From: Escherichia coli
GTDB taxonomy: Bacteria > Pseudomonadota > Gammaproteobacteria > Enterobacterales > Enterobacteriaceae
Length of the DNA: 64,000 bases
Reading direction: 5' to 3' (one strand)
Assembly (NCBI RefSeq): GCF_003334255.1
Contig: NZ_QOWU01000010.1
Position numbers and translations under genes: made by a program. The notes under the pieces are model-generated. The model saw nothing but the letters and a program-made list of their open reading frames with translations. It ran no database searches and was not told the origin of the DNA. Shown here one piece after another: positions 7,058 through 48,747 of this stretch; the stretch's first letter is position 1; every line of letters starts with the position of its first letter.

Positions 7058-9853
<2,796 letters not shown>

Positions 9854-11543: not shown

Positions 11544-11874
11544 TTCTCTCTCTTTTTCGGCGGGCTGGTGATAACTGTGCCCGCGTTTCATATCGTAATT
11601 TCTCTGTGCAAAAATTATCCTTCCCGGCTTCGGAGAATTCCCCCCAAAATATTCACTGTAGCCATATGTCATGAGAGTTTATCGTTCCCAATACGCTCGA
11701 ACGAACGTTCGGTTGCTTATTTTATGGCTTCTGTCAACGCTGTTTTAAAGATTAATGCGATCTATATCACGCTGTGGGTATTGCAGTTTTTGGTTTTTTG
11801 ATCGCGGTGTCAGTTCTTTTTATTTCCATTTCTCTTCCATGGGTTTCTCACAGATAACTGTGTGCAACACAGAA

Positions 11875-15115
<3,241 letters not shown>

Positions 15116-33038: not shown

Positions 33039-33060
33039 ACGGCCTCTGCTGAGGCCGTCA
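33039..33060. terminator. Bidirectional hairpin between convergent pntB and tqsA
   Basis: Inverted repeat GACGGCCTC-TGCT-GAGGCCGTC (9-bp stem) between the two stop codons. Confidence 0.5.
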
Positions 33061-33963
33061 CTCTTTATTGAGATCGCTTAACAGAACGGCGATGCTTTGA
33101 CCTCCCGCTGTTTGTTCAAGCGCAATTTTGACAATAATTGTCAACGGCACGGAAAGCAGCATACCCACCGGTCCTAACAACCATCCCCAAAAAATCAACG
33201 ACAAAAATACCACCAATGTGGAAAGCCCCAGCCCACGCCCCATGATACGCGGCTCCAGAATATTGCCGAAGACCAGATTAATCAGCAGATATCCCGCCAG
33301 CACCAGCAACGCTTCGTAGAAGCCATTAAACACCAGTACCTGAGCGATAGGGGGGATTGCCGCGAGGACTGAACCAATATTCGGGATGTAATTAAGCGCA
33401 AAGGCCAGCAATCCCCAGACAAAAGCGAAGCGAACATCGAGTGCGGCGAGCATCGCCCAGGCGACCAGGCCGGTGATGATGCTGATGGCTGTTTTCAGCA
33501 CCAGATAATGAGAAACACTGTCAATCGCACGTTGAATCGCCGCCATCCCTTCAACCGGACGCGCCATCATTTGCTGAAATTTTCCGGGCAATTGTGGCAC
33601 TTCGAGCAGCATAAACAGCACCGTCAGCAGCAATAAAAATATTGATGACATGGCATTAGATAACTGCGTCAATAAGTTGGTGAGCAACGTCATCGCCGCG
33701 TTCGGATCAATATAATGCGCCAGCTGGTCAACTGAGACGTCAATCCCTACGCGTTGCAACAACGGTTCAAGCGCTTGCAGCGGCGTCATAATAGAGTTGC
33801 GATATTGCGGTAACGTCCGCGTCAACTCGTTGAGCGCGGAACCCAGATAAGCTAATAGCAACACCATCGCCATCACGATGATGGTCATCAAAATCGACAC
33901 CGCCAGTACACGCGGCACACGCCAGCGGACCATGTGTTGCACCAGCGGGTTAAGAATAACAGC
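33058..33963 (-). pseudogene. tqsA: tqsA (ydgG) 3' fragment: AI-2 exporter lacking its first 45 codons because of island insertion
   Basis: Minus-strand coding sequence ...[27 protein letters not shown]... to stop matches TqsA residues 44-344; sequence 5' of 33964 is unrelated and enters an integrase gene. Confidence 0.88.
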
Positions 33964-34091: not shown

Positions 34092-34115
34092 CGGTGTAGT
34101 CACTGGTGTAGTCAC
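34092..34115 (+). repeat. Tandem 10-bp repeat GGTGTAGTCA x2 (candidate integrase arm-type site) upstream of int
   Basis: CGGTGTAGTCACTGGTGTAGTCAC 25 bp upstream of the int start; a near-identical copy lies at 48725-48747 near the other island end. Confidence 0.5.
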
Positions 34116-34139
34116 TTTTTCGTAAAGAGGGGGTAAAAC

Positions 34140-35369
34140 GTGAGCAGAGCAATGAACAAACTGAGCGATACCTTGCTAAGGAAACTTCATGGTAAGCCAG
34201 CGGAGAAAAACACGTTTTATAGTGATGGCGGAAACCTGAGCGTGAAATATTTAACATCAGGGAAATTGACCTGGTATTTCACATACAGGGCCGGAACGGG
34301 AAGGGAGACACGACCCGAACGCATTAAGCTGGGAAGTTATCCTGATCTGAGCCTGAAAGCAGCCAGGGAAAAAGCCGCACAGTGTCGCACATGGCTGGCT
34401 GAGGGGAAAAATCCACGTCATGAGATGAATTACACCGTACAGGAAGCGTTAAAGCCCGTAACGGTTGGCGATGCGCTCACCTACTGGCTTGAGTATTACG
34501 TAAAGGAAAACCGCGTGGATTATATCGCCCTGAAAAGGCGACTTAATAATCACGTAATACAGCAGATTGGTGCTATGCCGCTGGATAAATGCGAGCTACG
34601 GCACTGGCTGGCCTGTTTTGACCAGGTGGCAAAGCGAACGCCTGTTACTGCCGGATTCGTGCTACAGGCGTGCAAACAGGCGCTTAAGTTCTGCCGTAGG
34701 CGGCGCTATGCAATCAGCAACGTTCTGGACGATCTGAACGTGGCGGACGTTGGGAAAAAACCGGATATAAGCGAACGTGTCTTAAGTAACAAAGAACTTG
34801 GCGAATTATTGCAGGCACTGGACAAAAAAATATTTTCCCCTTACTACGTCGCGTTAATCCGCCTCCTGATTGTCTTCGGAGCCAGGACGGTAGAACTGAG
34901 GCTATCGGAGATCGGGGAGTGGGATTTTACGGAAATGCTATGGACCGTTCCGAAGGAGCACAGCAAAACGAAGGTCGCAATATTCCGGCCCATACCGGAA
35001 GCGATCCTGCCGTTCGTCACGCAGCTGGTGGAGCAGAACAGGCACACGGGCTTATTGCTGGGGGAAGTGAAACAGGAGGCCAGCGTATCGCAGTATGGAA
35101 GATTAGCGCACAGGAGGCTTAATCATCCTCACTGGTCACTGCATGACATCCGGCGCACCTTTACAACCATGCTGAACGATTTAGGCGTTGATCCGCATGT
35201 CGTGGAGCAGCTTACAGGTCATCAGATGCCAGGAATGCAGCGAGTTTATAATCATTCCCGTTATCTGGATGCTAAACGCAATGCGCTGGATATGTGGATG
35301 GAGCGGTTAGGGATACTGGCGGGAACACATGAAAACGTAACCACGCTACCAGTAGCCAGAAGAAAATAA
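34140..35369 (+). CDS. int: Tyrosine integrase, P4-type (DUF4102 arm-binding N-terminal domain plus catalytic domain ending ...HDIRRTF...Y), 409 aa from GTG
   Basis: N-terminal KLSDTLLRKLHGKPAEKNTFYSDGGNLSVKYLTSGKLTWYF resembles the P4 integrase family N-terminus; C-terminal HxxRRT and downstream Tyr; GTG at 34140 has a GAGGGGG RBS (alternative ATG at 34152). Confidence 0.88.
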   Translation: MSRAMNKLSDTLLRKLHGKPAEKNTFYSDGGNLSVKYLTSGKLTWYFTYRAGTGRETRPERIKLGSYPDLSLKAAREKAAQCRTWLAEGKNPRHEMNYTVQEALKPVTVGDALTYWLEYYVKENRVDYIALKRRLNNHVIQQIGAMPLDKCELRHWLACFDQVAKRTPVTAGFVLQACKQALKFCRRRRYAISNVLDDLNVADVGKKPDISERVLSNKELGELLQALDKKIFSPYYVALIRLLIVFGARTVELRLSEIGEWDFTEMLWTVPKEHSKTKVAIFRPIPEAILPFVTQLVEQNRHTGLLLGEVKQEASVSQYGRLAHRRLNHPHWSLHDIRRTFTTMLNDLGVDPHVVEQLTGHQMPGMQRVYNHSRYLDAKRNALDMWMERLGILAGTHENVTTLPVARRK

Positions 35370-35743
35370 TTTTTTTCGTGTTTTTTCAGTATGCGCATAC
35401 TGGATATGCGAACAGATACAACATGCAACAATGAGCAACAATGCGGAACAACTACGAACAAGAGACGAAAAAGTGTACGGATTTATAAGTAGCTGATTTT
35501 TAATGTGTTACTGGTTTTTTATACACTAGCGAATCACTCTTTAAATAGCGAGAAAAAAGGCATGAAACAATATTTTATGCCTTTGTATTAACATGAATTT
35601 AAATGATTTTATCCTGATTATTCCTGTTTCTGTAAACCATACGACCTCAACATTTGCCAACTCTGAATCATCCTGACACAATCAGACACATCCCAACGCA
35701 ATAGAACACGAAATAACTCTTTAAGAAACGAAAGGGGGCAATA

Positions 35744-35932
35744 GTGTTAAGCACTGATCGGTTTATACGTGAAAAAGAATGCGAAAAGCTAACAGGCCTT
35801 AGCCGCTCATGCCGCTACCGCCTGGAAAAGGCCGGACAATTCCCATCACGTCGTAAACTTGGCGGTCGTTCCGTTGGCTGGTCTTTATCCGAGGTTCTGG
35901 CCTGGAAGGATAGCTGCAAGGCAGTTCATTAA
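35744..35932 (+). CDS. alpA: AlpA-family transcriptional regulator / excisionase-like HTH protein (62 aa, GTG start)
   Basis: LSTDRFIREKECEKLTGLSRSCRYRLEKAGQFPSRRKLGGRSVGWSLSEVLAWKDS fits the AlpA/Vis-type small HTH family; RBS AGGGGG 5 nt upstream. Confidence 0.75.
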   Translation: MLSTDRFIREKECEKLTGLSRSCRYRLEKAGQFPSRRKLGGRSVGWSLSEVLAWKDSCKAVH

Positions 35933-36432
35933 TCACGCTGGCGGCACACAGCCGCCACACATCAATCATCTGAACACAGAGCTATAACCATGAAGATTGA
36001 ATATACGCCAGAACGTGGGCGGGGATTCGTTCGCCCTGGTGAGACTGGAAAACCACAAAATTGGGGTTTTTCAGGCATAAAAAAAGCGGCCCCGAAATGG
36101 AGCCGCCTTTCTGAACAGATAACACGCTGCGCCGTTTGTGTGTGTGATCCCAAACATAAGCACGGGGATGATAGCCGCTATCAGGCTGGTGGGCAATGCA
36201 ATCAGTCTGGTTCAGTTCGTTGCCATACCTGCAATGAGCGCTTTTCCCTGTACTCTTTAAGGAATTGCTCAAGGGCAAAAGCACATGGCGCGAATCTTTC
36301 TGATTCATGCTCTATCTTTCTGCGCCGTCTTTTCCGTGCCGGTGATAATGTTTTGGTCAATTCTTTATCGGTCATTGTGTTGTCCTGCATAGCAATGCGC
36401 CGTAATACCTCACACCACGGCGCTGATAGTGA

Positions 36433-36738
36433 TTATTCTGATTCTTTGGCCTTGCGGCGCTGTAGTTCTTCACGAGCGATGGCGATAAGTTGCCCGAGTT
36501 CTTCCGTAGCTTTAATACCAATTTTTTCCACTTGCGCCAATGCATCGAGAGAAGAAATCAGAGGATTTTCACTGCTTCCTTCTGCCTGGCGGCGGGCGAT
36601 CTCCCCGCGCATGGCGGTTACTATGAATCCGGCGTTGCTTTCGCCGTCCAGTTTTACGGATTCCATGCCATCAAAAGCATCATGTGGGATACGAATTGAA
36701 ATCTGTTTTGATTTGTCGTTGATAGTGTTTTTTGCCAT
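36433..36738 (-). CDS. Hypothetical protein (101 aa), leftward-transcribed; candidate island regulator
   Basis: Start at Met 14 of the ORF, with AGGAGA RBS 7 nt upstream; the only clearly leftward gene in the island, divergent from the replication operon; function unknown. Confidence 0.5.
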   Translation of the reverse strand: MAKNTINDKSKQISIRIPHDAFDGMESVKLDGESNAGFIVTAMRGEIARRQAEGSSENPLISSLDALAQVEKIGIKATEELGQLIAIAREELQRRKAKESE

Positions 36739-36925
36739 GTGCATTCTCCTAAACAAAAGATGTGATTCAGTATACACAAAAAAGAATCACAAAAAACACT
36801 TGACCTGTGATTCAGTTGAATTTAATTTAAATCACACCTCAGTAAGAGGATGTAAACGACAACGCCCCGAACTGTTTGCGGCAGTAGCGGGGCGTCTAAC
36901 CAAACCGTTAACAGGAGTAACGATT

Positions 36926-37123
36926 ATGGCTGGAACACAGCATACCCCACGTCTGGCGCACACACAAACTGCCTTTGTGTGGCGTTTTCTGGCACTAAGT
37001 GCCGGAGAATCTCAAATCATCCACGTAACCGCCTGGACGGAACGCGAAGCGCGTAGCCGTTGCCCGTCCGGTTGTGTTGCTGTATTCGCCGCCCGTATTC
37101 GTCAGGGGGTGTGCCATGCCTGA
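36926..37123 (+). CDS. Small protein (65 aa), first gene of rightward operon; possibly Icd-like (function uncertain)
   Basis: ATG at 36926 preceded by AGGAG RBS (ACAGGAGTAACGATTATG); C-terminal part of the spurious long ORF 35990-37123; stop overlaps next gene start. Confidence 0.5.
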   Translation: MAGTQHTPRLAHTQTAFVWRFLALSAGESQIIHVTAWTEREARSRCPSGCVAVFAARIRQGVCHA

Positions 37124-37436
37124 CATGACCAATTACCAGTACCTGATTAATCCGCATTTTAACTGTGAGCATGATATTGCTAAAAAGGTTTATTCCGCTG
37201 CGGATGGGGCTACTGACAATATATCAATGGCTGTTTCGTCAATTGGTAGCCTGATGTGGTATGCGTCAGAAAATAAGGAATATGACGAAAAGGCCATGCG
37301 CATTGATATGGGTAATATTGGTTTGTTACTGGCAATGCTTGGACATTTTGATATTTCGTTACGGTGCACCATTGAAAATGCCACAGATGCATTAAATGCT
37401 ATAAAGAAAGCGAATACTGATTCAAATCGGGGATAA
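37116..37436 (+). CDS. Hypothetical protein (106 aa)
   Basis: ATG at 37116 overlapping the upstream stop (translational coupling); no recognisable motif. Confidence 0.5.
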   Translation: MPDMTNYQYLINPHFNCEHDIAKKVYSAADGATDNISMAVSSIGSLMWYASENKEYDEKAMRIDMGNIGLLLAMLGHFDISLRCTIENATDALNAIKKANTDSNRG

Positions 37437-37442
37437 ATAATC

Positions 37443-37742
37443 ATGAGAACGTATTTATCTGGCTTTACTGCCAGCGGTTATGCACACCCCAAAATTATCC
37501 CCGGCGCTATTTATCTGGATAAGAACGGTAACAGAGTAACGGTAAAAGAACTGATGTTTGACCGTGTGTATTTTATTCGTGATGGCTATTCATTTCATAG
37601 TTCGCTGAACGTGGAGATCTTTATTAGCAGATTCCGGCGGGAAATCCCGCTTTCCAGAAATAACCATGTGTCATGTATGGATGTTGATAAAAAACTACAG
37701 GAACTGAAAAACATGATTGCCGCGTGGAGAGAGCAGAAATGA
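37443..37742 (+). CDS. Hypothetical protein (99 aa)
   Basis: ORF directly upstream of and overlapping the primase gene start; no recognisable motif. Confidence 0.5.
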   Translation: MRTYLSGFTASGYAHPKIIPGAIYLDKNGNRVTVKELMFDRVYFIRDGYSFHSSLNVEIFISRFRREIPLSRNNHVSCMDVDKKLQELKNMIAAWREQK

Positions 37743-39556
37743 AAAAAGCGCCAAATTTAAAACACCAGCCGCGTGACAAAATGACGGAAGTCATCATTTT
37801 TGCGGGTAGTGATGCGTGGGCACATGCGAAGCAGTGGCAGGAACAGGACGGGCGACTGGCTGGCGATAACGTGCCACCTGTCTGGCTTGGAGAGCAACAA
37901 CTTGCCGAACTGGACAACCTGCAAATCGTACCGGACGGACGCTATCGCGTGCGTCTCTACCAGGCGGGGTTATTGCGTCCGGGGCTTGTTAATACCATCG
38001 GGCAGAAACTGGCAGCGGCAGGTGTCAGGGATGCTGATTATTACCCTGAAGGAATGCACAGCCAGAAACGGGAGAACTGGCGCGAATATCTGGAACGTGA
38101 GCGGGGAGAGCTGGCGGAAAAGAAAAAGGTAGTTGAACTGCCTGTAAAGAAAAAAGAGCGGGTAAAAGACGATAACGCTTCATCACTGGCGCTTAACCAG
38201 ATGGGAGCAAGTCAACGCGGCGAAGTTCTCCTGGCACATTATGGCGGTGAACTGGCGATTCATGCTGACTCTGACACTGTTCACTATTACAACGGCGTTG
38301 TATGGGAGCCAGTACAGGATAAAGAATTACAGCGAGCTATGGCGCAGATTTTCATTGATGCGGAGATCAGCTATTCGCAGAACGCCATTAAATCGGCGGT
38401 CGATACCATGAAGTTAAGTTTGCCTGTAATGGGGAATACAGCCCGTAACCTGATTGGATTCAGTAACGGTGTTTTTGATACCCGGACAGGCGATTTTCGG
38501 GAGCATAACAAAAACGACTGGTTGTTAATTGCCAGTGAATTACCTTTCAGCCCACCAGCAGAGGGGGAAACGCTGGCAACACATGCGCCGAATTTCTGGA
38601 AGTGGTTACGCCGTTCGGTGGCTGAGAATGACCGCAAGGCGGATCGCGTACTGGCTGCATTATTCATGGTGCTGGCGAACCGGTACGACTGGCAGTTATT
38701 CATTGAGGTAACAGGTCCAGGGGGAAGTGGTAAAAGCGTGATGGCGGAGATTTGCACCATGCTGGCGGGTAAGGCCAACACGGTATCGGCAAGCATGAAG
38801 GCGCTGGAAGATGCCAGGGAACGCGCGTTAGTGGTTGGCTTTTCGCTGATTATCATGCCGGATATGACCCGTTACGCTGGTGATGGCGCAGGAATTAAGG
38901 CCATTACAGGCGGTGACAAGGTGGCAATCGACCCGAAGCATAAAGCCCCCTACTCAACACGCATTCAGGCGGTAGTGTTGGCGGTGAACAATAACGCCAT
39001 GTCATTCAGTGACCGCAGCGGGGGGATTTCACGTCGTCGGGTGATATTCAATTTTTCGGAGGTTGTACCGGAAAACGAACGCGACCCCATGCTGGCAGAA
39101 AAAATAGAAGGAGAGCTGGCGGTTGTGATTCGCCACCTGCTTACTCGTTTTTCTGACCAGGACGCAGCTAAACGCCTGCTGTATGAGCAGCAGAAATCAG
39201 AAGAAGCTCTGGTGATAAAACGCGAGGGCGATTCGCTGGTGGACTTCTGCGGCTATCTCATGTCGTCGGTAATGTGTGATGGTCTGTTAGTGGGTAATGC
39301 CGAAATTATTCCGTTCAGTCCGCGCAGGTATCTTTATCACGCCTATCTGGCATATATGAGGGCACACGGATTCGGTAAACCTGTAACACTGACGCGCTTC
39401 GGTAAAGATATGCCGGGGGCAATGGCGGAATATGGCAGGGAGTATATGAAACGGAAAACGAAGCACGGTTTGCGTTCAAACGTGACACTGACGGAGGAAT
39501 CAGAAGACTGGATGCCATCATGTGTATCGGTCACTAATGACGATAGCAAAAATTAA
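37739..39556 (+). CDS. Primase / replication initiator with P4/D5-type NTPase domain (605 aa)
   Basis: Walker A VTGPGGSGKS and downstream Walker B-like hydrophobic-acidic stretch in the C-terminal half (P4-family primase C-terminal domain architecture); GGAGAG RBS before ATG 37739; followed by an iteron array. Confidence 0.75.
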   Translation: MKKAPNLKHQPRDKMTEVIIFAGSDAWAHAKQWQEQDGRLAGDNVPPVWLGEQQLAELDNLQIVPDGRYRVRLYQAGLLRPGLVNTIGQKLAAAGVRDADYYPEGMHSQKRENWREYLERERGELAEKKKVVELPVKKKERVKDDNASSLALNQMGASQRGEVLLAHYGGELAIHADSDTVHYYNGVVWEPVQDKELQRAMAQIFIDAEISYSQNAIKSAVDTMKLSLPVMGNTARNLIGFSNGVFDTRTGDFREHNKNDWLLIASELPFSPPAEGETLATHAPNFWKWLRRSVAENDRKADRVLAALFMVLANRYDWQLFIEVTGPGGSGKSVMAEICTMLAGKANTVSASMKALEDARERALVVGFSLIIMPDMTRYAGDGAGIKAITGGDKVAIDPKHKAPYSTRIQAVVLAVNNNAMSFSDRSGGISRRRVIFNFSEVVPENERDPMLAEKIEGELAVVIRHLLTRFSDQDAAKRLLYEQQKSEEALVIKREGDSLVDFCGYLMSSVMCDGLLVGNAEIIPFSPRRYLYHAYLAYMRAHGFGKPVTLTRFGKDMPGAMAEYGREYMKRKTKHGLRSNVTLTEESEDWMPSCVSVTNDDSKN

Positions 39557-39569
39557 ACTTATGGAATAA

Positions 39570-39792
39570 CTGTTCACCACTGTTCACCCTGTCATAAATA
39601 TCTTTTGTATCAGTATGTTATAGGGTGAACAGTTATTTATGAACTGTTCACCAAACTATTCACTGTTCACCTTTTTGATTGTTTATTGAGCTTCAAGGGT
39701 GAACAGTGGTGAATAGTTGGTGAATAGTTTTTGTGAAACTGTTCACCCCTTAACATTATGAATTAAAAGATAAAATATCAAAAGGTGAACAG
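39570..39792. repeat. Iteron array (at least 8 copies of CTGTTCACC / GGTGAACAG in both orientations): candidate island replication origin
   Basis: Copies at 39570, 39580, 39624(inv), 39644, 39663, 39698(inv), 39739, 39784(inv) plus GGTGAATAG variants at 39708 and 39718, in AT-rich DNA just after the primase gene. Confidence 0.65.
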
Positions 39793-39843
39793 GTGAAGGG
39801 TTAAAACGCAAAAATTTTAATTTACTGCTGTGAGATAAAGCCT

Positions 39844-40089
39844 ATGACAGCGAAGCACACAAAAAAATCACAATCGCACGCCCTTGATTTGACGGAACAC
39901 TGGTTAAGGGTGTCGATAAAAATCATCGACCGCAACGCCGGGGAAGGATATGCGAAAGCACATCCCGAACTGATTAGCTCATTCATGACAACGGCAGCTG
40001 CAAACTTTGCCACGCTGACAGAACGGGAGATTGCCGAAGCGGAACAGGTGACAACCATCAACGTTAAAACCGGAGAGCAGACAGCATGA
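39844..40089 (+). CDS. Hypothetical protein (81 aa)
   Basis: ORF immediately upstream of and overlapping the ssb start (ATGA overlap); weak RBS. Confidence 0.4.
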   Translation: MTAKHTKKSQSHALDLTEHWLRVSIKIIDRNAGEGYAKAHPELISSFMTTAAANFATLTEREIAEAEQVTTINVKTGEQTA

Positions 40090-40496
40090 CAGCACAGATA
40101 GCAGCTTACGGGCGGCTGGTGGACGACCCGCAGGTAAAACAGACCAGTAAGGGCACACCGATGACGCTGGCGCGTATGGCGGTATCGTTGCCATGTAGTC
40201 AGGCGCAGGATGGGCAGGCGACGTTATGGCTATCGGTCATCGCATTTGGTAAGCAGGCCGACTTCCTGGCTAAACATCAAAAAGGCGACGTTGCCAGCGT
40301 ATCCGGCACGATGCAGGTCAGCCAGTGGACCGGACAGAACGGGGAAACGCGGCAGGGTTATCAGGTTATTGCAGACAGCGTAATCAGTGCCCGTGCGGCA
40401 CGTCCTGGCGGGAACAGACGCAAAACCACAGGCACACAGGGTAATCAGCCACCAGCGGGAGGCGATGACCCTTACGGTGACGGTATTCCGTTCTGA
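40086..40496 (+). CDS. ssb: Single-stranded DNA-binding protein (136 aa)
   Basis: OB-fold-like N-terminal region, Gly/Pro/Gln-rich linker and acidic C-terminal tail ...DDPYGDGIPF, the hallmark SSB protein-interaction tail. Confidence 0.75.
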   Translation: MTAQIAAYGRLVDDPQVKQTSKGTPMTLARMAVSLPCSQAQDGQATLWLSVIAFGKQADFLAKHQKGDVASVSGTMQVSQWTGQNGETRQGYQVIADSVISARAARPGGNRRKTTGTQGNQPPAGGDDPYGDGIPF

Positions 40497-40506
40497 GGGG
40501 GTGGCG

Positions 40507-40779
40507 ATGGTACATGACCGCATAGCGGAAGAACTCGAGGCGAAAGGCTTTTACCGGAGGGCGGCGGCGCGATGGGGTGAAGTCATGCTGCTGGTGGAGA
40601 CAGACAAGGAACGGCATCAGGTTACGATGCGACGGCTGGAATGTTCCAGGAAGGCACAGAAGCCACCGGAGCCGCCGGATAACTTCGGAGACCTGAGAAA
40701 GGCAGTAGATCGCACTTATGCTGAAATGGGTATAGATGGTGTAAGCGATGAAATATGGCGTAATTACCCAGACAGCTAA
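40507..40779 (+). CDS. PerC-family-like small transcriptional activator (90 aa)
   Basis: MVHDRIAEELEAKGFYRRAAARWGEVM... resembles the conserved PerC motif (LEAxGxxRRAAxRW) as I remember it; GAGGGGG RBS. Confidence 0.5.
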   Translation: MVHDRIAEELEAKGFYRRAAARWGEVMLLVETDKERHQVTMRRLECSRKAQKPPEPPDNFGDLRKAVDRTYAEMGIDGVSDEIWRNYPDS

Positions 40780-40784
40780 TCAAC

Positions 40785-40808
40785 AGCCGGAGAAATCCGG
40801 CTTTTTTT
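40785..40808 (+). terminator. Intrinsic terminator
   Basis: AGCCGGAGAAATCCGGCT followed by TTTTTTT. Confidence 0.65.
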
Positions 40809-40903
40809 GCACCAGTTGAAACGGTATGGCGCATTACCGGGTTTTCGTCACGGTCAGGCATAGTTACTATCTGAAACAAACAGACACAACAGAGGAAAAA
40901 ACA

Positions 40904-41128
40904 ATGCCGATGAAATTTGATGAGATATTAAAACAGCGTGATAAATACCATGCTGACAACATGGAGACGATGAGCATCAATGATTACCGCGCATTCCTGG
41001 AGACGGGCGCACTGATTGAAAAGGATCAGCATGGTTTTGTGAGATGTGCTCTGTCCGGTGAAATGCTGGCGGTAAATCCTGAACAGATAGATGCATTGAT
41101 AGAATTTCTGAAAGGGATCAGGGACTGA
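40904..41128 (+). CDS. Hypothetical protein (74 aa)
   Basis: Start at internal Met with GAGGAAAAAACA-ATG RBS; followed by a terminator almost identical to the one at 40785. Confidence 0.45.
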   Translation: MPMKFDEILKQRDKYHADNMETMSINDYRAFLETGALIEKDQHGFVRCALSGEMLAVNPEQIDALIEFLKGIRD

Positions 41129-41138
41129 GCACGCATAC

Positions 41139-41160
41139 AGCCGGAGCAATCCGGCTTTTT
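41139..41160 (+). terminator. Intrinsic terminator (near-duplicate of 40785-40808)
   Basis: AGCCGGAGCAATCCGGCT followed by TTTTT. Confidence 0.65.
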
Positions 41161-41420
41161 GTCATTTTTTGTAAATTATTTGTTCGTGGTTGTTCCACGT
41201 TGTTCACTGACAGGATCGGCATATTTTACCCGAACTGAATCATGAGTATTCTCGCCCGTGGTGCCAGGACGCTGGGGCCACTTTCCCGCCTGTTAATGTG
41301 CTCGCCAATATTCATTACCAGGCGGGAAAACGATCGGTGCGATTGCTGATTTCCTTATGAAAAACGGTTGAGTTTTTGCCGCGTCCTGGAGTTCCTTACT
41401 TAACCCCAGGACTTTTTTTT

Positions 41421-42578
41421 ATGCCGAGAATAATCGAATTACGCCAGCAGAAAACCGCCATTAAAAATCAGATGCGCGACATGCTGGAGAACGCGGAAAA
41501 AGAAAACCGCAGCCTTAACGATGCAGAGGGCGCAAAATTTGACGAATTACGCGCTAAAGCTGAATCCCTCGATAAAGACATTTCCCGCCTTGAAGCCATT
41601 GCAGACGAAGAGCGCAGCAAGCCAGGTAAAAGCAGCCAGACCACTGACCCGGCAGAACTCCGCAACTACATCCTGACAGGTGAAACCCGCGCATTAAGTA
41701 CAGGCGTTCCCGCTGATGGTGGTTATACCGTTATCCCCGAACTGAACACCGAAATCATGCGAATGCTGACGGATGAATCCACCATGCGCCGCATCTGTAC
41801 CGTGAAGAAAATCAGCAGCAACGAGTTTAAGCAGCTTGTTTCCGCTGGCGGTGCGACCGTTAACCACGGTGAAGAGGGTAAGACACGCGAACAGACCAGC
41901 ACCCCGCAGATTAACGAGGTGAGCATTAAGCTGTATCCGGTCTATGCGTACCCGCGCACCACACAGGAAATCGTGGATTTTTCCGATGTGGACATCCTTT
42001 CATGGCTGACGGGTGAGATTGGCGACACCTTCACGGAAACCGAAGAAAGCGATCTGGTTGTGGGCGACGGTGACAAAAAAGCAAAAGGTTTTTTATCCGT
42101 ACCCCGTGCAGAGAAGAACGACAAAGAGCGTGATTTTGGTACGTTGCAGGTAATTAAACCTTCCGAATCTCTGGCGTGGACATCTGCGGACCCGCTGATC
42201 GACCTGAAATTTGCATTACGTAAAAAATACCGCAAAAACGCGGTCTGGGTGGTTAACTCCACGACGGCGGCAAAACTTCAGAAGGTGAAGAACGCGAACG
42301 GTGATTACATCTGGCGCGACCGTTTACAGGCGGGTGATCCTGATACGTTGCTGGGCCTTCCGGTCGAATATCTGGAGTTTATGCCTGATAACGTTATTGC
42401 CCTGGGTGACTTCAAACGCGGTTACTACATTGTTGATCACGAAACAGGTGTTCGCACCAGACCGGACAACCTCACAGAGCCGGGCTTCATCAAAATTTTC
42501 ACGCAGAAATATTTAGGCGGTGGCGTGGTGGATTCGAACGCGATCAAGATTCTGGAACTGCCACAGGACGACGATTAA
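41421..42578 (+). CDS. Major capsid protein, HK97 fold, with N-terminal coiled-coil scaffolding (delta) domain (385 aa from ATG 41421)
   Basis: N-terminal coiled-coil region (IELRQQKTAIKNQMRDMLENAEKENRSLNDAEGAKFDELRAKAESLDKDISRLEAIADEE) followed by a region typical of HK97-family capsid proteins; ORF track start 41376 is a TTG extension; strong terminator follows. Confidence 0.85.
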   Translation: MPRIIELRQQKTAIKNQMRDMLENAEKENRSLNDAEGAKFDELRAKAESLDKDISRLEAIADEERSKPGKSSQTTDPAELRNYILTGETRALSTGVPADGGYTVIPELNTEIMRMLTDESTMRRICTVKKISSNEFKQLVSAGGATVNHGEEGKTREQTSTPQINEVSIKLYPVYAYPRTTQEIVDFSDVDILSWLTGEIGDTFTETEESDLVVGDGDKKAKGFLSVPRAEKNDKERDFGTLQVIKPSESLAWTSADPLIDLKFALRKKYRKNAVWVVNSTTAAKLQKVKNANGDYIWRDRLQAGDPDTLLGLPVEYLEFMPDNVIALGDFKRGYYIVDHETGVRTRPDNLTEPGFIKIFTQKYLGGGVVDSNAIKILELPQDDD

Positions 42579-42590
42579 CAGCATACAGAA

Positions 42591-42620
42591 GGGGCTTAAA
42601 AGCCCCTTTAGTGTTTTATG
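42591..42620 (+). terminator. Intrinsic terminator after major capsid gene
   Basis: GGGGCTT-AA-AAGCCCC hairpin followed by a T-rich tract. Confidence 0.65.
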
Positions 42621-42632
42621 GGTGAAAAAATT

Positions 42633-43190
42633 ATGAAGAGTATGGAAATCCGGTCATCGGAAATCACCACCAGCGCCAGCAACACGCTTACAGGCTACGT
42701 TGTTCGCTGGGATAAGCTTTCAGAGCTGCTATGGGGGGAGTTTTACGAAAAATTCCAGCGGGGAGCGTTTACTGAATGGCTTGCGGCGGGTAATGACGTT
42801 CGCGGCCTGTATGAGCATGACCACAGCATGTTGCTGGGGCGTACCCGTTCCGGCACGCTGAAACTGGAAGAGGACGAAACAGGGTTACGCTTTGAACTGA
42901 CCCCACCGGATACCAGTACAGGGCGCGACGTTATCGAACTGGTTAAGCGTGGGGACATCTCGGGGATGAGCTTTGGCTTTCGCTCCCGTAAGGATGTATG
43001 GGATACCACAACAGATCCATGCGTGCGCACCGTGCTGGTGGCGGAACTGTACGAAATTACCGTTACATCGGTACCGGCTTACCCCGATTCCGGCGTGGAG
43101 CTGGCCCGCCGTTCCCTGTATGAGCAGCACCCCGAAAAAATGCCGCGTGCGGATAATCGCCGCTGGTGGGTGGATTTAGCGGGGGTGTGA
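42633..43190 (+). CDS. Prohead maturation protease, HK97 family (S78-like), about 186 aa
   Basis: Sequence typical of HK97-type prohead proteases (GYVVRWDKLS..., YEHDHSMLLGRTRSGTL, GDISGMSFGF); start ambiguous among ATG 42618/42633/42642. Confidence 0.8.
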   Translation: MKSMEIRSSEITTSASNTLTGYVVRWDKLSELLWGEFYEKFQRGAFTEWLAAGNDVRGLYEHDHSMLLGRTRSGTLKLEEDETGLRFELTPPDTSTGRDVIELVKRGDISGMSFGFRSRKDVWDTTTDPCVRTVLVAELYEITVTSVPAYPDSGVELARRSLYEQHPEKMPRADNRRWWVDLAGV

Positions 43191-43191
43191 T

Positions 43192-44403
43192 ATGTGGCTT
43201 TTCAGAAGAAAAAAAGAGCAGCGCAGCATGACGCTTGATGAATTTATGGCGCTGGCTGGCACATCGAACACGGGGGCGGGTGAGTACGTATCATCGGGGA
43301 CAGCGGAATCACTGCCCGCCGTCATGAACGCCGTGACGGTCATCTCTGAGGCGGTGGCTACCATGCCGTGTTACCTGTACCTGGTACGCAATGAGAAGGG
43401 GAAGGAGGCCCGCGAGTGGCTTGATTCTCATCCGGTCGATCACATCCTCAACGAGCGCCCGAACGCGTGGCAGACTCCCTACCAGTTTAAGCGAATGATG
43501 ATCCGCCACTGCCTGTTAAACGGTAATGCTTATGCGGTGATTCAGTGGGGGCGTGATGGTTTTCCGGTGGCTTTACATCCTTACCCGCCGCAGTCGGTGA
43601 ACGTGGAGCAGACAGGCGAACACAACTGGCGCTACTGCATCACTGACGCCTACACCGGAAACACCCGCAACTATTTACCGTGGGAGGTTCTCCACCTTCG
43701 TTACTCCACGGATGACGGTTTTATGGGGCGCTCACCTGTAACCATCTGCCGCGAATCGCTGGGGCTTGGGCTGGCCCAACAACGCCACGGCGCGAGCGTG
43801 ATGCGTGATGGCATGATGGCGGCAGGGGTTATCACGTCAGGCGAATGGCTGGACGGCGTGAAGGGCAAACAGGCATTAGCCGCACTGGAACGCTACAAAG
43901 GGGCCAGAAACGCCGGAAAAACGCCCATCCTTGAAGGGGGTATGAGCTATCAGCAGCTGGGCATGAGTAATCAGGATGCTGAATGGCTGGCCTCCCGTCG
44001 CTTCACCATTGAAGACATCGCCCGAATGTTCAACGTCTCGCCGATTTTTCTGCAGGAATACAGCAACAGCACCTACAGCAATTTCAGCGAGGCAAGCCGC
44101 GCATTTCTCACCATGACAATGCGCCCGTGGCTGGCGAACTTTGAGCAGCAGATAAAAAACGCCCTGCTGGTGGCCTCGCCTGTACCTGGTATCCGGTATC
44201 AGGTGGAGTTTGACAGCGCGGACCTGTTACGGGCCACACCTGGCGAACGCTTTGCCACCTATGAACGCGGCATCAAATCCGGCGTTATGTGCCCGAACGA
44301 AGCCCGCGAACGTGAAGGGCTGTCCCCGCGTGATGGTGGTGATGAGTTCAGCCAGGCATGGAAACAGGAAGTAAAAATCAGCGAGGGAGAAAAACCGGAA
44401 TGA
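43192..44403 (+). CDS. Portal protein, HK97 family (403 aa)
   Basis: Size, position and conserved portal-like core (…LLNGNAYAVIQWGRDG…, …ILEGGMSYQQLGMSNQDAEWL…); immediately follows the protease with 1-nt spacing. Confidence 0.8.
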   Translation: MWLFRRKKEQRSMTLDEFMALAGTSNTGAGEYVSSGTAESLPAVMNAVTVISEAVATMPCYLYLVRNEKGKEAREWLDSHPVDHILNERPNAWQTPYQFKRMMIRHCLLNGNAYAVIQWGRDGFPVALHPYPPQSVNVEQTGEHNWRYCITDAYTGNTRNYLPWEVLHLRYSTDDGFMGRSPVTICRESLGLGLAQQRHGASVMRDGMMAAGVITSGEWLDGVKGKQALAALERYKGARNAGKTPILEGGMSYQQLGMSNQDAEWLASRRFTIEDIARMFNVSPIFLQEYSNSTYSNFSEASRAFLTMTMRPWLANFEQQIKNALLVASPVPGIRYQVEFDSADLLRATPGERFATYERGIKSGVMCPNEAREREGLSPRDGGDEFSQAWKQEVKISEGEKPE

Positions 44404-44738
44404 ACATAGGGCGACTGCGTGACAGGGTAACGATTCAGACCCTGAAACAGACCAGGGATATAACCGGCGAAATACTCGAAACGTGGGAGGACGGTCACAC
44501 ACTCTGGGCAAGCGTGAACATGATCAGCAGCAAGGAGGCCATTTCATCGGGTGCAGAGCTGGCGATTGGTACCGTAAGGATCTGGATACGGTACCGGAAG
44601 GACATCAATGCCACCAGCCGGATAAAGGTCAGTACGGGGCCGCTGGCGGGGCGTGTACTGAATATCATCGGGCAGCCGCTGCCGGATGCCGCCAGGACAC
44701 GCCTTGAAATTCTTTGTCGTGAGGGCGCGGAAAAATGA
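44400..44738 (+). CDS. Head closure / head-tail adaptor protein (112 aa)
   Basis: MNIGRLRDRVTIQTLKQTRD... resembles the head-tail joining family; ATGA overlap with portal stop; GAGGGAGA RBS. Confidence 0.7.
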   Translation: MNIGRLRDRVTIQTLKQTRDITGEILETWEDGHTLWASVNMISSKEAISSGAELAIGTVRIWIRYRKDINATSRIKVSTGPLAGRVLNIIGQPLPDAARTRLEILCREGAEK

Positions 44739-45031
44739 CAGAAGAACTTATCACCCTGGAAGAAGTGAAACTCCATTGCCGCATCGATGGCGACGAGGAA
44801 GACCAGTTAATCAGCGGATACATCGCCGCATCGCTTGAGGCGTGCCAGATACACATAGGCAGGCGCTTTGATGACGGGCTGGAGTTCACGCCAGCCATAA
44901 AGATTGGCTGCATGATGTTTATCGCTCACCTGTATGAAAATCGCCAGATTGTCGCGGATAACGCAAAAACACGCGTACCCATGACGATTGGTGCACTCTG
45001 GACGGCTTACCGTGATGTGGGGGTGTACTGA
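44735..45031 (+). CDS. gp6-like head-tail connector protein (98 aa)
   Basis: MTEELITLEEVKLHCRIDGDEEDQLISGYIAASLEACQIHIG... resembles the gp6-like connector family N-terminus. Confidence 0.7.
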   Translation: MTEELITLEEVKLHCRIDGDEEDQLISGYIAASLEACQIHIGRRFDDGLEFTPAIKIGCMMFIAHLYENRQIVADNAKTRVPMTIGALWTAYRDVGVY

Positions 45032-45471
45032 TGCCGTGGCAACCATTAAGACGATGCACAGAACCAGGCTGTAACAGGCGCGTGAAGTCCGGCAAGTGTG
45101 AGGAGCACAGGCGGGCGGCATGGCGTGCAGAGGATGCCAGACGAGGACACCGCCGCGCGCGTGGGTACTCCAGACAGTGGGACAAATACCGCGCCATGTA
45201 TCTGAGTAAAAACCCGTTATGCGTGCGATGCCTTGAGAAGGGGATATATACGCCCGCCGTGGTGGTGGATCACATTATCCCGATTAATGGCGGTGATGAT
45301 GTTCTCTTCTGGCCCGAATGGAACCATCAGCCATTGTGCCAGGCGTGCCATAACCAGAAAACGAAATGGCTTGATCCGGCAACAAAAAGCAAGCGTGCCG
45401 CAGGTGGATTTCGTGAAGAGGAAGAACGGGCCGCTAACCGCAATAACTGGATGTATGACGCTGATGAATGA
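45031..45471 (+). CDS. HNH endonuclease (packaging-associated), 146 aa
   Basis: Cys pairs plus VVDHIIPINGGDD...NHQPLCQACHNQK (HNH motif); located immediately upstream of TerS as in HK97-like cos packaging modules. Confidence 0.85.
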   Translation: MPWQPLRRCTEPGCNRRVKSGKCEEHRRAAWRAEDARRGHRRARGYSRQWDKYRAMYLSKNPLCVRCLEKGIYTPAVVVDHIIPINGGDDVLFWPEWNHQPLCQACHNQKTKWLDPATKSKRAAGGFREEEERAANRNNWMYDADE

Positions 45472-45759
45472 GCGGGAACAAAACCGCCTTATCCGTGGAC
45501 TTATAAGGCAGCGTGACGCATGGAAGACACAGGAAACAGGGCATAAAGATAAAGCGTCAGGACGCGCAGAACGCATCACAGCGAAGCGATTAACCGACCG
45601 TGACCGCGAGGTTATGGAATGTTTCCGCAATCGCTGATGAGGCTGTATGACGGGGTGGGGGGCGTTTTCAGGACAAACCCGACCCCGCCGGGCACCGACC
45701 GCCTCCTCAAATTTTTATGCACGGGAATTTTTTGAAAAATAATCTGACGAAAAATAAGC

Positions 45760-46116
45760 ATGGCAAGACCACCGAAAGCCCCCGCCTACCTGGATGACAT
45801 CGCCGTGAAGCAGTGGCGGGAAAAATCGCGGCAGCTTGCGGAACGGGGAGACCTGACCCCCGCCGACTGGAGCAATCTGGAACTGTATTGTGTCAACTAC
45901 TCCATTTACCGGAAAGCCGTCGCAGACCTTGCGGCGCGCGGGTTCAGCATTGTTAACAGTCAGGGCGGCGAGAGCAGAAACCCCGCATTAAGCGCGAAAT
46001 CAGACGCTGAAAGGGTGATGATAAAAATGGCCTCCTTGCTCGGTTTTGACCCGATAAGCCGCCGTAAAAACCCACCGGAAACAGAAGAAGAGGACGAGCT
46101 TGACCGCCTGGAATAA
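45760..46116 (+). CDS. Terminase small subunit, P27 family (118 aa)
   Basis: Resembles P27-type TerS (AVKQWREKSRQLAERGDLTPADWSNLELYCVNYSIYRKA); overlaps TerL start. Confidence 0.8.
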   Translation: MARPPKAPAYLDDIAVKQWREKSRQLAERGDLTPADWSNLELYCVNYSIYRKAVADLAARGFSIVNSQGGESRNPALSAKSDAERVMIKMASLLGFDPISRRKNPPETEEEDELDRLE

Positions 46117-47761
46117 GTACGCAGAAGACGTAAAAACGGGCAAAATTCAGGCCTGTAAACGGTTAAAACAGGCCGTTAAACGGTACTTTTCGGACCTTAA
46201 AAGCCCCCTTTACACGTTCGATCGTGAGGTTGTGGATCGGTTTATTGCCTTTTCCAGGGTGTGCCCGCACGTAAAAGGGCCGATGCGTGGCAGACCCATT
46301 GAGCTGGAGCCGTGGCAGCAGTTCGCCTTTGCGTGCATCCTCGGCTTTAAGGTTAAGGCCACCGGACGGCGCAAATATACGAGCGCCTTTATCGAAGTGC
46401 CGCGCAAAAATGCTAAATCAACGACCGCCGCGATTCTGGCTAACTGGTTTCTGATTATGGAGAACGGTCAGCAGGATATTTACACCGCAGCGGTGAGCCG
46501 TGACCAGGCGAGGATCGTATTTGATGATGCGCGTCAGATGTGCATTTTATCCCGACCGTTACGCAGGCGGGTGAATATTCAGGCGCATAAGGTGATACAC
46601 CCGAAAACCAACAGCCTGTTAAAGCCGCTGGCAGCAAAAGCGGCAACTATCGAGGGCACAAACCCCAGTCTTTCTATCGTGGACGAATACCACCTACACC
46701 CCGACAACGGCGTATATTCTGCGCTTGAACTGGGGATGGGGGCACGTCCCGAAGGGCTGTTATTTGCCATTACCACATCGGGAAGTAACGTCGTTTCAGC
46801 CTGTAAGCAGCATTATGATTATTGCTGCCAGATCCTGGACGGCGAAGAGGTTAACGAATCGCTTTTTGTGCTGATTTACGAACTGGACGACGAAAACGAG
46901 GTTGATGATCCGGAGATGTGGATAAAGGCGAACCCTAATATCGATGTTTCCGTGGATCGTGAAAAACTGGCCTCAACCATTCAGAAAGCGCGGGGTATTC
47001 CGTCGCAATGGGTGGAGATGATGACAAAGCGATTTAATATCTGGTGTCAGGGGACTACCCCGTGGATGGGTAATGGTGCATGGGCTGAGTGTGCCGGAAC
47101 GTTCACGGAGGAAGATTTACACGGTCAGGAGTGTTACGCGGGGCTGGACTTATCATCAACCAGCGATATTTCCAGCGTGTGCTATGCCTTTCCGGTCGGT
47201 AAAACCATTATGATGATTTCCCGTCATTATCTGCCGGAGTTCCAGCTACAGAACCCCGCCAATAAAAACCGCGCTGTCTATCGTCAGTGGGCTAAAGCAG
47301 GCTGGATACGCACAACGCCTGGCGACTGCATTGATTACGACCGGATCAGAGATGACATCATGCAGGACGCGGAGAAATTTAATATCAGGCTGGTGGGCTT
47401 TGATACGTGGAACGCCACGCATCTCAGAACGCAATTACAGGGGGCAGGTTTTGAGGTGGAGCCGTTCCCGCAAACCTACCTCAGATTCAGTCCGGCGGCG
47501 AAATCGTTCGAAGTTTTTGTTAACCGCAGGGTGATTGTGCATCGTGGCGATCCGGTGTTGTCCTGGTCGATGAGTAACGTCGTGATGCAGAGTGACGCGA
47601 ACGCCAATATCAAGCCGAACAAGAAAAAATCACCGAACAAGATAGACCCGAGCGTGGCGGCGCTGATGGCGTTTGGTACATTCCAGGCAGAGCATGAGGA
47701 TTTTGCTTTTGATATAAGCGACAGCCACCGCCAGAAACTGGAAGAATTTAGCGGGGTGTAA
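46100..47761 (+). CDS. Terminase large subunit (553 aa; apparent TTG start)
   Basis: ATPase and nuclease domains in typical TerL arrangement; no in-frame ATG/GTG near the 5' end, TTG at 46100 preceded by GAGGA. Confidence 0.85.
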   Translation: MTAWNKYAEDVKTGKIQACKRLKQAVKRYFSDLKSPLYTFDREVVDRFIAFSRVCPHVKGPMRGRPIELEPWQQFAFACILGFKVKATGRRKYTSAFIEVPRKNAKSTTAAILANWFLIMENGQQDIYTAAVSRDQARIVFDDARQMCILSRPLRRRVNIQAHKVIHPKTNSLLKPLAAKAATIEGTNPSLSIVDEYHLHPDNGVYSALELGMGARPEGLLFAITTSGSNVVSACKQHYDYCCQILDGEEVNESLFVLIYELDDENEVDDPEMWIKANPNIDVSVDREKLASTIQKARGIPSQWVEMMTKRFNIWCQGTTPWMGNGAWAECAGTFTEEDLHGQECYAGLDLSSTSDISSVCYAFPVGKTIMMISRHYLPEFQLQNPANKNRAVYRQWAKAGWIRTTPGDCIDYDRIRDDIMQDAEKFNIRLVGFDTWNATHLRTQLQGAGFEVEPFPQTYLRFSPAAKSFEVFVNRRVIVHRGDPVLSWSMSNVVMQSDANANIKPNKKKSPNKIDPSVAALMAFGTFQAEHEDFAFDISDSHRQKLEEFSGV

Positions 47762-47774
47762 TGAGGTCAGCAGC

Positions 47775-48056
47775 ATGACAGAAGCCGAAATAACGGGATT
47801 AATCCGCCGCGTTGCCGGAATCAGCCAGCAGGCTGACGAACAGGCCACGCAGCCGGACAGCGTGACAGCCGAAAACTATGCGCGTGTTGTTGCTGAGGTG
47901 ATGCGCCGTGATGGTATAGAACTTAATGGCGTGGATATGCGCAACATACGAACCAGAGTTCTTGAGTTGCTGGCCTACCGTCGCCGCGTGGAGATGTATC
48001 GGGAGAAGGAGAAAATAACGTACCACTGGAAGAAGCCGGAGCGGTTGCGGCGGTAA
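47775..48056 (+). CDS. Hypothetical protein (93 aa), last gene of island
   Basis: ATG 47775 with GAGG RBS 8 nt upstream; no recognisable motif. Confidence 0.5.
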   Translation: MTEAEITGLIRRVAGISQQADEQATQPDSVTAENYARVVAEVMRRDGIELNGVDMRNIRTRVLELLAYRRRVEMYREKEKITYHWKKPERLRR

Positions 48057-48349
48057 CTGGTTGATATTCCCGACGGACCAAAAATGGGTGGCTACATCCC
48101 TCGCTTCTGAGGACTGTTAACAAGCTGCCTGAAAGACAGTCACAAACTACGAAATTTTCGCAGTTTAATTAATGATCAGCTTAATCGCTAACCCGCTGAT
48201 ATTTTCGGAAACCTCAATTTGAGGAAGTCGGCGCGGTAACTCGCTGAACTTTAAGCAAAGTGCAAAATTGCGCTTGCTGAATAATCATTATGATTACGCA
48301 GATGATTAAGGAATGACCGAAGGCGGAAATTCGCCTGTGGTTAATGGGG

Positions 48350-48462
48350 GAGTTGCAGATCTGCAACTCGACCATGAAACTACGGAAACTACCCGTAGTT
48401 TGGGTAGTAAGAGTAACACCCAGATTTTGGGTCTTACTCGTGATACCCAAATTTGGGGTATC
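48350..48462. repeat. Cluster of perfect and near-perfect palindromes in the island right arm
   Basis: Perfect 20-bp palindrome GAGTTGCAGATCTGCAACTC (48350-48369); AAACTACGG/CCGTAGTTT stem (48376-48400); nested AGTAAGA...ACCCA...TGGGT...TCTTACT (48406-48439); GATACCCAAATTTGGGGTATC (48442-48462). Confidence 0.6.
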
Positions 48463-48724
48463 AGTGGCAACCATAACGACTTTCGTTACGGTTGATGCTT
48501 TTACCCCATTGGGGGAAAGGTATTACGATAATCATAACACCTACCGAACAGGTAAAGCCCACCAGCCTGATTAACGTTTAACCGGAAAAAAATTCCGGTA
48601 GGTGGGGATCCCCATATCGACATTAACGCCCCTCATGAATTGGTGCGCTTCCCCCTGGAAAGATGATCCGCCTGTATATTTCTTGTGTCTATTTGTTCCA
48701 CGTTGTTTCATACAGTGCACCGAA

Positions 48725-48747
48725 CGGTGTAGTCACTGGTGTAGTCA
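48725..48747 (+). repeat. Tandem 10-bp repeat GGTGTAGTCA x2 (second copy of candidate arm-type site)
   Basis: CGGTGTAGTCACTGGTGTAGTCA, same orientation as 34092-34115; preceded by TTGTTCCACGTTGTT, which recurs at 41190. Confidence 0.5.

Follow-up and report, generated by a model that had tools for sequence, protein, structure and literature searches.

A P4-type iteron array downstream of rep as the probable origin of replication in a capsid-forming phage-inducible chromosomal island of Escherichia coli

Introduction

A stretch of 64,000 nucleotides of the Escherichia coli contig NZ_QOWU01000010.1 (hereafter the window) carries a genomic island in which a gene annotated as "DNA primase family protein", here termed rep, is directly followed by a dense array of short repeats. 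This raises the question whether the array serves as the replication origin of the island or fulfils a different function. The original prediction, made from the sequence alone, had proposed an island origin bound by its own initiator. According to our analysis the array is very probably the origin from which a capsid-forming phage-inducible chromosomal island (cf-PICI) located inside tqsA replicates vegetatively. The proposal is supported by the identity of the repeat with the iteron of satellite phage P4, the match of the Rep protein to the origin-binding domain of the P4 alpha protein (PDB 1KA8), the layout shared with the island EcCICFT073, the co-variation of Rep and iterons in related loci and the exchange of both as one cassette between sibling islands.

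The repeat array and its unit

The exact 9-mer CTGTTCACC occurs nine times in the window, and eight of these copies lie within the 223 bp between positions 39570 and 39792, five on the plus strand (39570, 39580, 39644, 39663 and 39739) and three on the minus strand (39624, 39698 and 39784), in agreement with the predicted number of at least eight copies in both orientations. In 100 dinucleotide-preserving shuffles of the window the expectation for CTGTTCACC was 0.36 copies per 64-kb window, the largest number obtained being two, which excludes a chance origin of the cluster. The variants that had also been predicted were found as two copies of GGTGAATAG with one mismatch each on the minus strand (39708 and 39719). 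Together with two degenerate iterons containing two mismatches each, CTATTCACT on the plus strand (39656-39664) and GGTGAAGGG on the minus strand (39792-39800), the array comprises 12 sites (eight exact, two with one mismatch and two with two mismatches), six per strand, with a spacing of 8-11 bp inside the tandem groups.

The array is intergenic, being located between the rep stop codon at 39556 and the start of a small open reading frame (ORF) at 39844, and begins 14 bp past the stop codon. Its GC content amounts to 28-38% (33% overall) compared to about 50-55% in the flanks, so that the expectation of approximately 220 bp of AT-rich DNA directly after the upstream gene was confirmed. The 9-mer was retained only in part as the repeat unit: its copies are real, but the conserved unit is shorter. 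Since the first C of the 9-mer is C or G in the relatives, while the 8-mer TGTTCACC is kept (71 distinct related arrays), the latter is regarded as the true unit.

This 8-mer links the island to P4. The P4 record NC_001609 annotates an 8-bp "ori type 1 repeat" both at the origin (ori, also called ori1) and at the cis replication region (crr), and the P4 repeat, of which 11 exact copies were counted compared to 0.37 expected, is identical to the core of the island iteron, TGTTCACC. Matches to the P4 type 2 repeats (CAYTTAAAG) were at or below the chance level and none was located in the array. The same applies to DnaA boxes (TTWTNCACA), for which the five matches in the window correspond to the chance level and none falls into the array. 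A scan of the whole window against Rfam detected no family at gathering score, and no known RNA accounts for the array.

Within the rep coding sequence the near-iterons AGTTCACC, TGTTCACT and TGTTCACC occur singly at 38246, 38278 and 38983, respectively, at a density close to chance for matches with at most one mismatch. In P4 a second origin has been reported inside the alpha gene.

The initiator protein Rep

The rep gene (37739-39556, plus strand) is contained in an ORF spanning 37724-39556 (610 codons), the start in RefSeq being equal to 37739. Its product is predicted to consist of a Toprim-like N-terminal module, a D5_N domain, a superfamily 3 (SF3) P-loop helicase and a C-terminal winged-helix origin-binding domain. 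Pfam matches were obtained for D5_N (amino acids 167-296), DUF5906 (SF3 P-loop, 330-438) and Pox_D5 (501-596). The Walker A motif GPGGSGKS and an RRR motif are invariant across the Rep alignment.

P4 alpha reportedly binds the type I iterons via its C-terminal domain. Amino acids 118-600 of Rep share 48% identity with amino acids 290-771 of P4 alpha, covering the helicase and the C-terminal domain, and the wing motif KR.TK.G...N.TL is common to both proteins. Furthermore, amino acids 502-598 of Rep match the origin-binding domain of P4 alpha as solved in structure 1KA8 (Yeo et al. 2002, cited in PMC2777425) with an E-value of 1e-24. This domain is a winged helix placed behind the SF3 helicase (PMC2777425).

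The N-terminal module of Rep is short (amino acids ~1-140) and Toprim-like, with E22, D30 and D48 as invariant residues. No primase family was matched in the Pfam scan of Rep, and hhalign detected no similarity between the N-terminal module and the primase region of P4 alpha. The upstream gene had been predicted to encode a primase/NTPase. Our results support an SF3 helicase and origin-binding initiator as its likely product, whereas the label "primase" appears doubtful because only the short Toprim-like module and no recognisable primase domain is present.

Two inverted modules resembling the P4 origin

The 12 sites are arranged as a dyad of two modules of ~110 bp in inverted orientation around an AT-rich central spacer of 26 bp (39672-39697, 73% AT). 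The left origin module (39565-39671) contains plus-strand iterons at 39570, 39580, 39644, 39656 (degenerate) and 39663, a minus-strand iteron at 39624 and a spacer at 39589-39623. The right origin module (39698-39801) contains minus-strand iterons at 39698, 39708, 39719, 39784 and 39792 (degenerate), a plus-strand iteron at 39739 and a spacer at 39748-39783. The AT-rich spacers of the two modules reach 73-83% AT, and the spacer 39748-39783, with 83% AT, is a candidate unwinding site.

Aligned to the left module in reverse complement (39562-39683), the right module (39686-39806) is 69% identical. When folded as a single strand, the region 39557-39843 forms one long hairpin centred on the central spacer with -61 kcal/mol compared to -25 ± 3.4 kcal/mol for shuffled sequences (z = -10.45). 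Identity to the core of P4 ori (9298-9420) amounts to 66% for the right module and to 62% for the left module in reverse complement. Both modules and the P4 ori core have the same order of elements, namely three iterons, one inverted iteron, the motif CCnTTAAC, an AT-rich spacer of ~35 bp and two iterons, the spacer 39748-39783 corresponding to the spacer of P4 ori. Judged by this colinearity, the putative island origin is composed of two P4-ori-like modules set head to head.

The corresponding region of EcCICFT073

The array shows features of a PICI origin, as it is located immediately 3' of the initiator gene and contains two iteron sets that flank AT-rich DNA. An experimentally tested counterpart is found in the E. 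coli PICI EcCICFT073 of the CFT073 chromosome, in which the gene order of DUF4222 gene, rep, a gap of 288 bp, small ORF, ssb and perC is the same as in the island and the Rep protein shares 48% identity with the island Rep over the full length. The gap of EcCICFT073 aligns with the island array, and both have the 12-site layout and the two inverted modules. The left spacer (39589-39623) is the one that is AT-rich in EcCICFT073 too, while the right-module spacer of EcCICFT073 is GC-rich, unlike that of the island.

At the restrictive temperature, a temperature-sensitive plasmid was shown to be maintained by the EcCICFT073 rep gene cloned together with this region (Fillol-Salom et al. 2018, ISME J, PMC6092414). 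In the same study the rep mutant yielded no colonies and the deletion of ori resulted in significantly fewer colonies.

Co-variation of Rep and iterons and exchange as one cassette

The type of iteron follows the type of Rep across 159 related loci. Among the 160 loci collected from IMG/VR, T[GA]TTCACC arrays were detected in all 76 loci with an intact Rep of the window type, and arrays with a TCTACC core in each of the 78 loci with a CFT073-type Rep. The corresponding wing motifs are KRKTKxGxRSNVTL in the window-type Rep, KRHTKQGIQTNLTL in P4 alpha and TRKVKGVTQTNAITT in the CFT073-type Rep.

Two further loci (L084 and L085) encode Rep proteins that are 80-100% identical to the Rep of the window up to about amino acid 575, including the recognition helix, but differ in the last ~30 residues, which form the wing. 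Their iterons, GGTAGACAG, have a different layout and are located within 450 bp downstream. Since L084 and L085 keep the recognition helix but change both the wing and the iterons, the wing is a candidate specificity determinant, and this single lineage hints that the last ~30 residues may set the iteron specificity. In another locus (L081) the TGTTCACC array is closely followed, ~330-470 bp past the Rep stop codon, by a further tandem array with about ten copies of a 10-bp unit, CATCTCACTG; this second array is absent from the window.

The comparison with the sibling island Sp7/EcCIEDL933 revealed the limits of the exchanged segment. The two islands are 92% identical around int and 71% identical over the first ~125 rep codons, the latter also describing the N-terminal module of Rep, have no DNA similarity between 38105 and 39903, and are 97.7% identical from 39904 to 48068, i.e. 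about 98% from the small ORF and ssb to terL. Similarly, the DNA similarity to EcCICFT073 ends at 38103 and restarts at 39879. Sp7/EcCIEDL933 also has a repeat array in the corresponding gap, which consists of 11 copies of ATAACCCGCA, and its Rep, a helicase of the DUF927/Cch type, carries a Cch helix-turn-helix (HTH).

Because the similarity breaks enclose both the helicase/binding part of Rep and the iterons, the two are concluded to travel as one unit, and the segment 38105-39879 forms an exchangeable replication cassette comprising the Rep helicase, the origin-binding part and the iteron array. Such joint travel is the behaviour expected of an initiator and its cognate origin.

Origin or other functions of the array

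Several observations weigh against the assignment of the array as an origin. The iterons that directly follow the initiator gene of P4 form crr, which enhances replication in cis but is not the place where it starts, and the deletion of ori in EcCICFT073 reduced plasmid maintenance without abolishing it (PMC6092414). The higher conservation of iteron positions (86.4%) than of spacers (80.3%) in the related arrays (Mann-Whitney p = 3.6e-4) speaks for the assignment, but the contrast is modest and the compared sequences are phylogenetically related. Moreover, Rep is without a recognisable primase domain; the P4 model of a self-sufficient initiator, helicase and primase may for this reason not be fully transferable to Rep.

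The first of these points leads to an alternative in which the array is a crr-like cis-acting enhancer that is bound by Rep while synthesis starts elsewhere in the island, as in P4, where crr lies directly downstream of the alpha gene and ori about 4.5 kb away. The 14.7-kb island has a single cluster only, no second one of the crr type being found, and iteron matches with at most one mismatch outside the array are scattered at about the chance rate. In addition, the modules show colinearity to the P4 ori core and none to the crr unit, being inverted and not organised as 120-bp direct repeats, and in EcCICFT073 rep and this region alone supported plasmid replication. We therefore regard an enhancer function without initiation as improbable.

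Even less probable is a mainly regulatory role of the repeats, either as operators by which Rep or a different protein of the island would control the downstream operon of ssb, perC and capsid genes or as "handcuffing" sites for the control of the copy number, without origin function. Iterons of plasmids often double as autoregulatory or handcuffing sites, and the array is positioned between two co-directional gene blocks. In the region 39300-40100, however, neither a sigma-70-like promoter nor an intrinsic terminator consensus was found (2.0 and 0.8 expected, respectively). The repeats are coupled to the helicase/binding part of Rep, whereas the downstream genes are 97.7% identical under three iteron types, and the counterpart in EcCICFT073 has origin activity.

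A packaging (cos/pac) or recombination site, although such sites are often AT-rich and contain repeats and the island encodes its own HNH-TerS-TerL machinery, is very unlikely, given that this island and Sp7 share about 98% identity in the packaging genes and the adjoining DNA while the array is fully replaced together with Rep, that the repeat matches the binding site of the P4 initiator and that the att repeats are located at the island ends.

Proposed initiation of replication

Initiation at the array as the origin can be pictured by analogy to P4, which replicates bidirectionally in the theta mode. After induction by a helper phage and excision of the island, Rep would recognise TGTTCACC via its C-terminal winged helix in the same way as P4 alpha. 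The twelve sites in two modules would nucleate Rep oligomers on each side of the dyad, and the SF3 helicase rings would then open the AT-rich spacer 39748-39783 or 39589-39623 and load themselves. Given the dyad, two opposed hexamers are probable, from which bidirectional theta replication would start, the opened DNA presumably being coated by the single-stranded DNA-binding protein (SSB) of the island encoded 300 bp downstream. Replication at a later stage might provide multimeric DNA that is packaged by the HNH-TerS-TerL proteins of the island. Rep binding, the melting site, the loading of a double hexamer and the mode of replication are inferred.

The host island

The array is located in an island of ~14.7 kb (34092-48747) with a 23-bp direct repeat, CGGTGTAGTCACTGGTGTAGTCA, at both ends (34092 and 48725). 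The island splits tqsA, the gene of the autoinducer-2 transporter, into two annotated pseudogene fragments (33058-33942 on the minus strand and from about 49000 onward). A near-identical annotated copy in the O157:H7 strain PV15-279 also sits inside tqsA, flanked by tqsA fragments. In this copy the genes for the integrase, an HTH regulator, an Icd-like protein, a DUF4222 protein and the "DNA primase family protein" are followed by the gap, the small ORF and the genes for SSB and PerC, and then by the packaging genes for the major capsid protein, prohead protease, portal, head closure and connector proteins, HNH, TerS and TerL. No tail or lysis genes are annotated in the PV15-279 copy. The 551 bp around the array are 100% identical to many chromosomes of enterohaemorrhagic E. 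coli (EHEC), and 652 of 5426 complete E. coli genomes, a large number of which are EHEC, contain the array region.

The integrase matches phrog_1 (E-value 6e-72), and the capsid protein matches the HK97 capsid family TIGR01554 (E-value 8e-88). The island has the int gene, the AlpA-type regulator, the unidirectional rightward genes and the own att site of a PICI of Gram-negative bacteria, as well as the size of ~10-18 kb, the integration, regulation and replication modules and the own gene set from capsid to TerL by which cf-PICIs are defined (10.1101/2025.02.11.637232). Based on this gene content, the island is classified as a cf-PICI inserted in tqsA. It is not the prototype of the cf-PICIs, EcCIEDL933 (10.1101/2022.09.08.507074), as the latter, equivalent to the Sakai prophage Sp7, is integrated between roxA and phoQ and has a different Rep and different iterons. 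The helper phage published for EcCIEDL933 is HK106.

Directly after the array a small conserved ORF of 81 amino acids (39844-40089, plus strand) is assigned to phrog_1231 of unknown function; EcCICFT073 and Sp7 share this order of genes. It is followed by the gene of the island SSB (40086-40496, plus strand), which matches phrog_44 (E-value 1e-39) and TIGR00621 (57.7 bits, above the cutoff) and is likely an accessory of the replication module. The next gene (40507-40779, plus strand) encodes a regulator of the PerC/PchE family and is annotated as pchE in Sp7 of strain Sakai. Members of this family were reported to activate the locus of enterocyte effacement (LEE) pathogenicity island in EHEC (PMC6092414).

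Upstream of rep, an ORF of 377 amino acids (35990-37123, plus strand) is probably not one gene. Only the last ~64 amino acids match an Icd-like cell-division inhibitor (NF033153), and in the near-identical RefSeq copy this stretch carries a pseudogene annotated as truncated, a YlcI/YnfO gene in antisense orientation and an Icd-like gene of 67 amino acids.

The database entry of Escherichia phage vB_KppS-Ant (LR881103.1), a 16.5-kb "phage" genome from an induced prophage, has the gene set of a cf-PICI. Its Rep core is 84% identical to that of the window and a TGTTCACC array follows rep at 11721-11949. The entry thus probably represents a packaged cf-PICI rather than a phage.

Significance

The analysis locates the probable origin of a satellite that is widespread, the cf-PICIs of this family crossing species by borrowing phage tails, and defines a minimal rep-ori unit as well as a candidate for the specificity determinant. 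The replication modules of PICIs are swapped as cassettes on an otherwise near-identical island backbone. The accepted view of how such origins work remains unchanged.

Since the island origin duplicates the P4 ori module and uses the exact P4 iteron, alpha proteins of the P4 family and the island Rep might fire or titrate each other's origins. If true, this would imply cross-talk in replication, or incompatibility, between two families of satellites that have been described as independently evolved. As suggested by L084 and L085, the Rep wing might in addition switch the iteron specificity. Both ideas are tentative and rather doubtful at present.

Comparison with known systems

In the literature searched, the papers on cf-PICIs describe neither origins nor iterons, and a full-text search for TGTTCACC retrieved only unrelated primer sequences. 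The supplements of the PICI study of 2018 list no iteron sequences, while a PICI origin of the TGTTCACC type may already be drawn in its Fig. 2a (PMC6092414).

The island shares with P4 (Ziegelin et al. 1993, on ori and alpha, cited in PMC8628076) the clustered TGTTCACC repeats in mixed orientation and an initiator with a homologous C-terminal winged-helix domain. P4 has one ori module and depends in cis on the distant crr, whereas in the island a pair of inverted modules occupies a single site and a second cluster is absent, and P4 alpha has a primase domain whereas none is recognisable in the sequence of Rep. The array also resembles P4 crr in being located directly downstream of the initiator gene and in consisting of type I iterons. 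However, crr is composed of two 120-bp direct repeats with another order of the iterons, while in the array an ori-like module is duplicated in inverted orientation. A homologue of Cnr, the copy-number regulator of P4, was not found in the ORF 37074-37436, the sole candidate compared, which left out the DUF4222 gene directly upstream of rep. The homology of PICIs to P4 was called distant in the study of 2018 (PMC6092414), and the PICI literature treated the relationship accordingly; the modules described here link the architecture of a PICI origin directly to P4 ori.

EcCICFT073 differs from the island in being a classical and not a capsid-forming PICI. Its iterons have the core TCTACC (CTGTCTACC and variants) instead of TTCACC, and the recognition helix and the wing of its Rep differ from those of the island Rep. 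Sp7/EcCIEDL933, the sibling island, differs in its integration site between roxA and phoQ compared to tqsA.

In the pathogenicity islands of Staphylococcus aureus (SaPIs) there are likewise iterons on both sides of an AT-rich region and the Rep protein is a helicase, but these origins have an unrelated sequence and a Gram-positive host, and pri and rep are often separate genes. The logic of an origin immediately 3' of rep is shared, e.g. with SaPIbov1 (Ubeda et al. 2007, cited in PMC6092414). With its iterons immediately 3' of rep and a P4-alpha-like initiator, the PICI origin described here is a known kind of element, to which our analysis makes the modest additions of the exact identity of the iteron with that of P4, the duplication of a P4-ori-like module in head-to-head orientation and the exchange of the cassette among sibling cf-PICIs.
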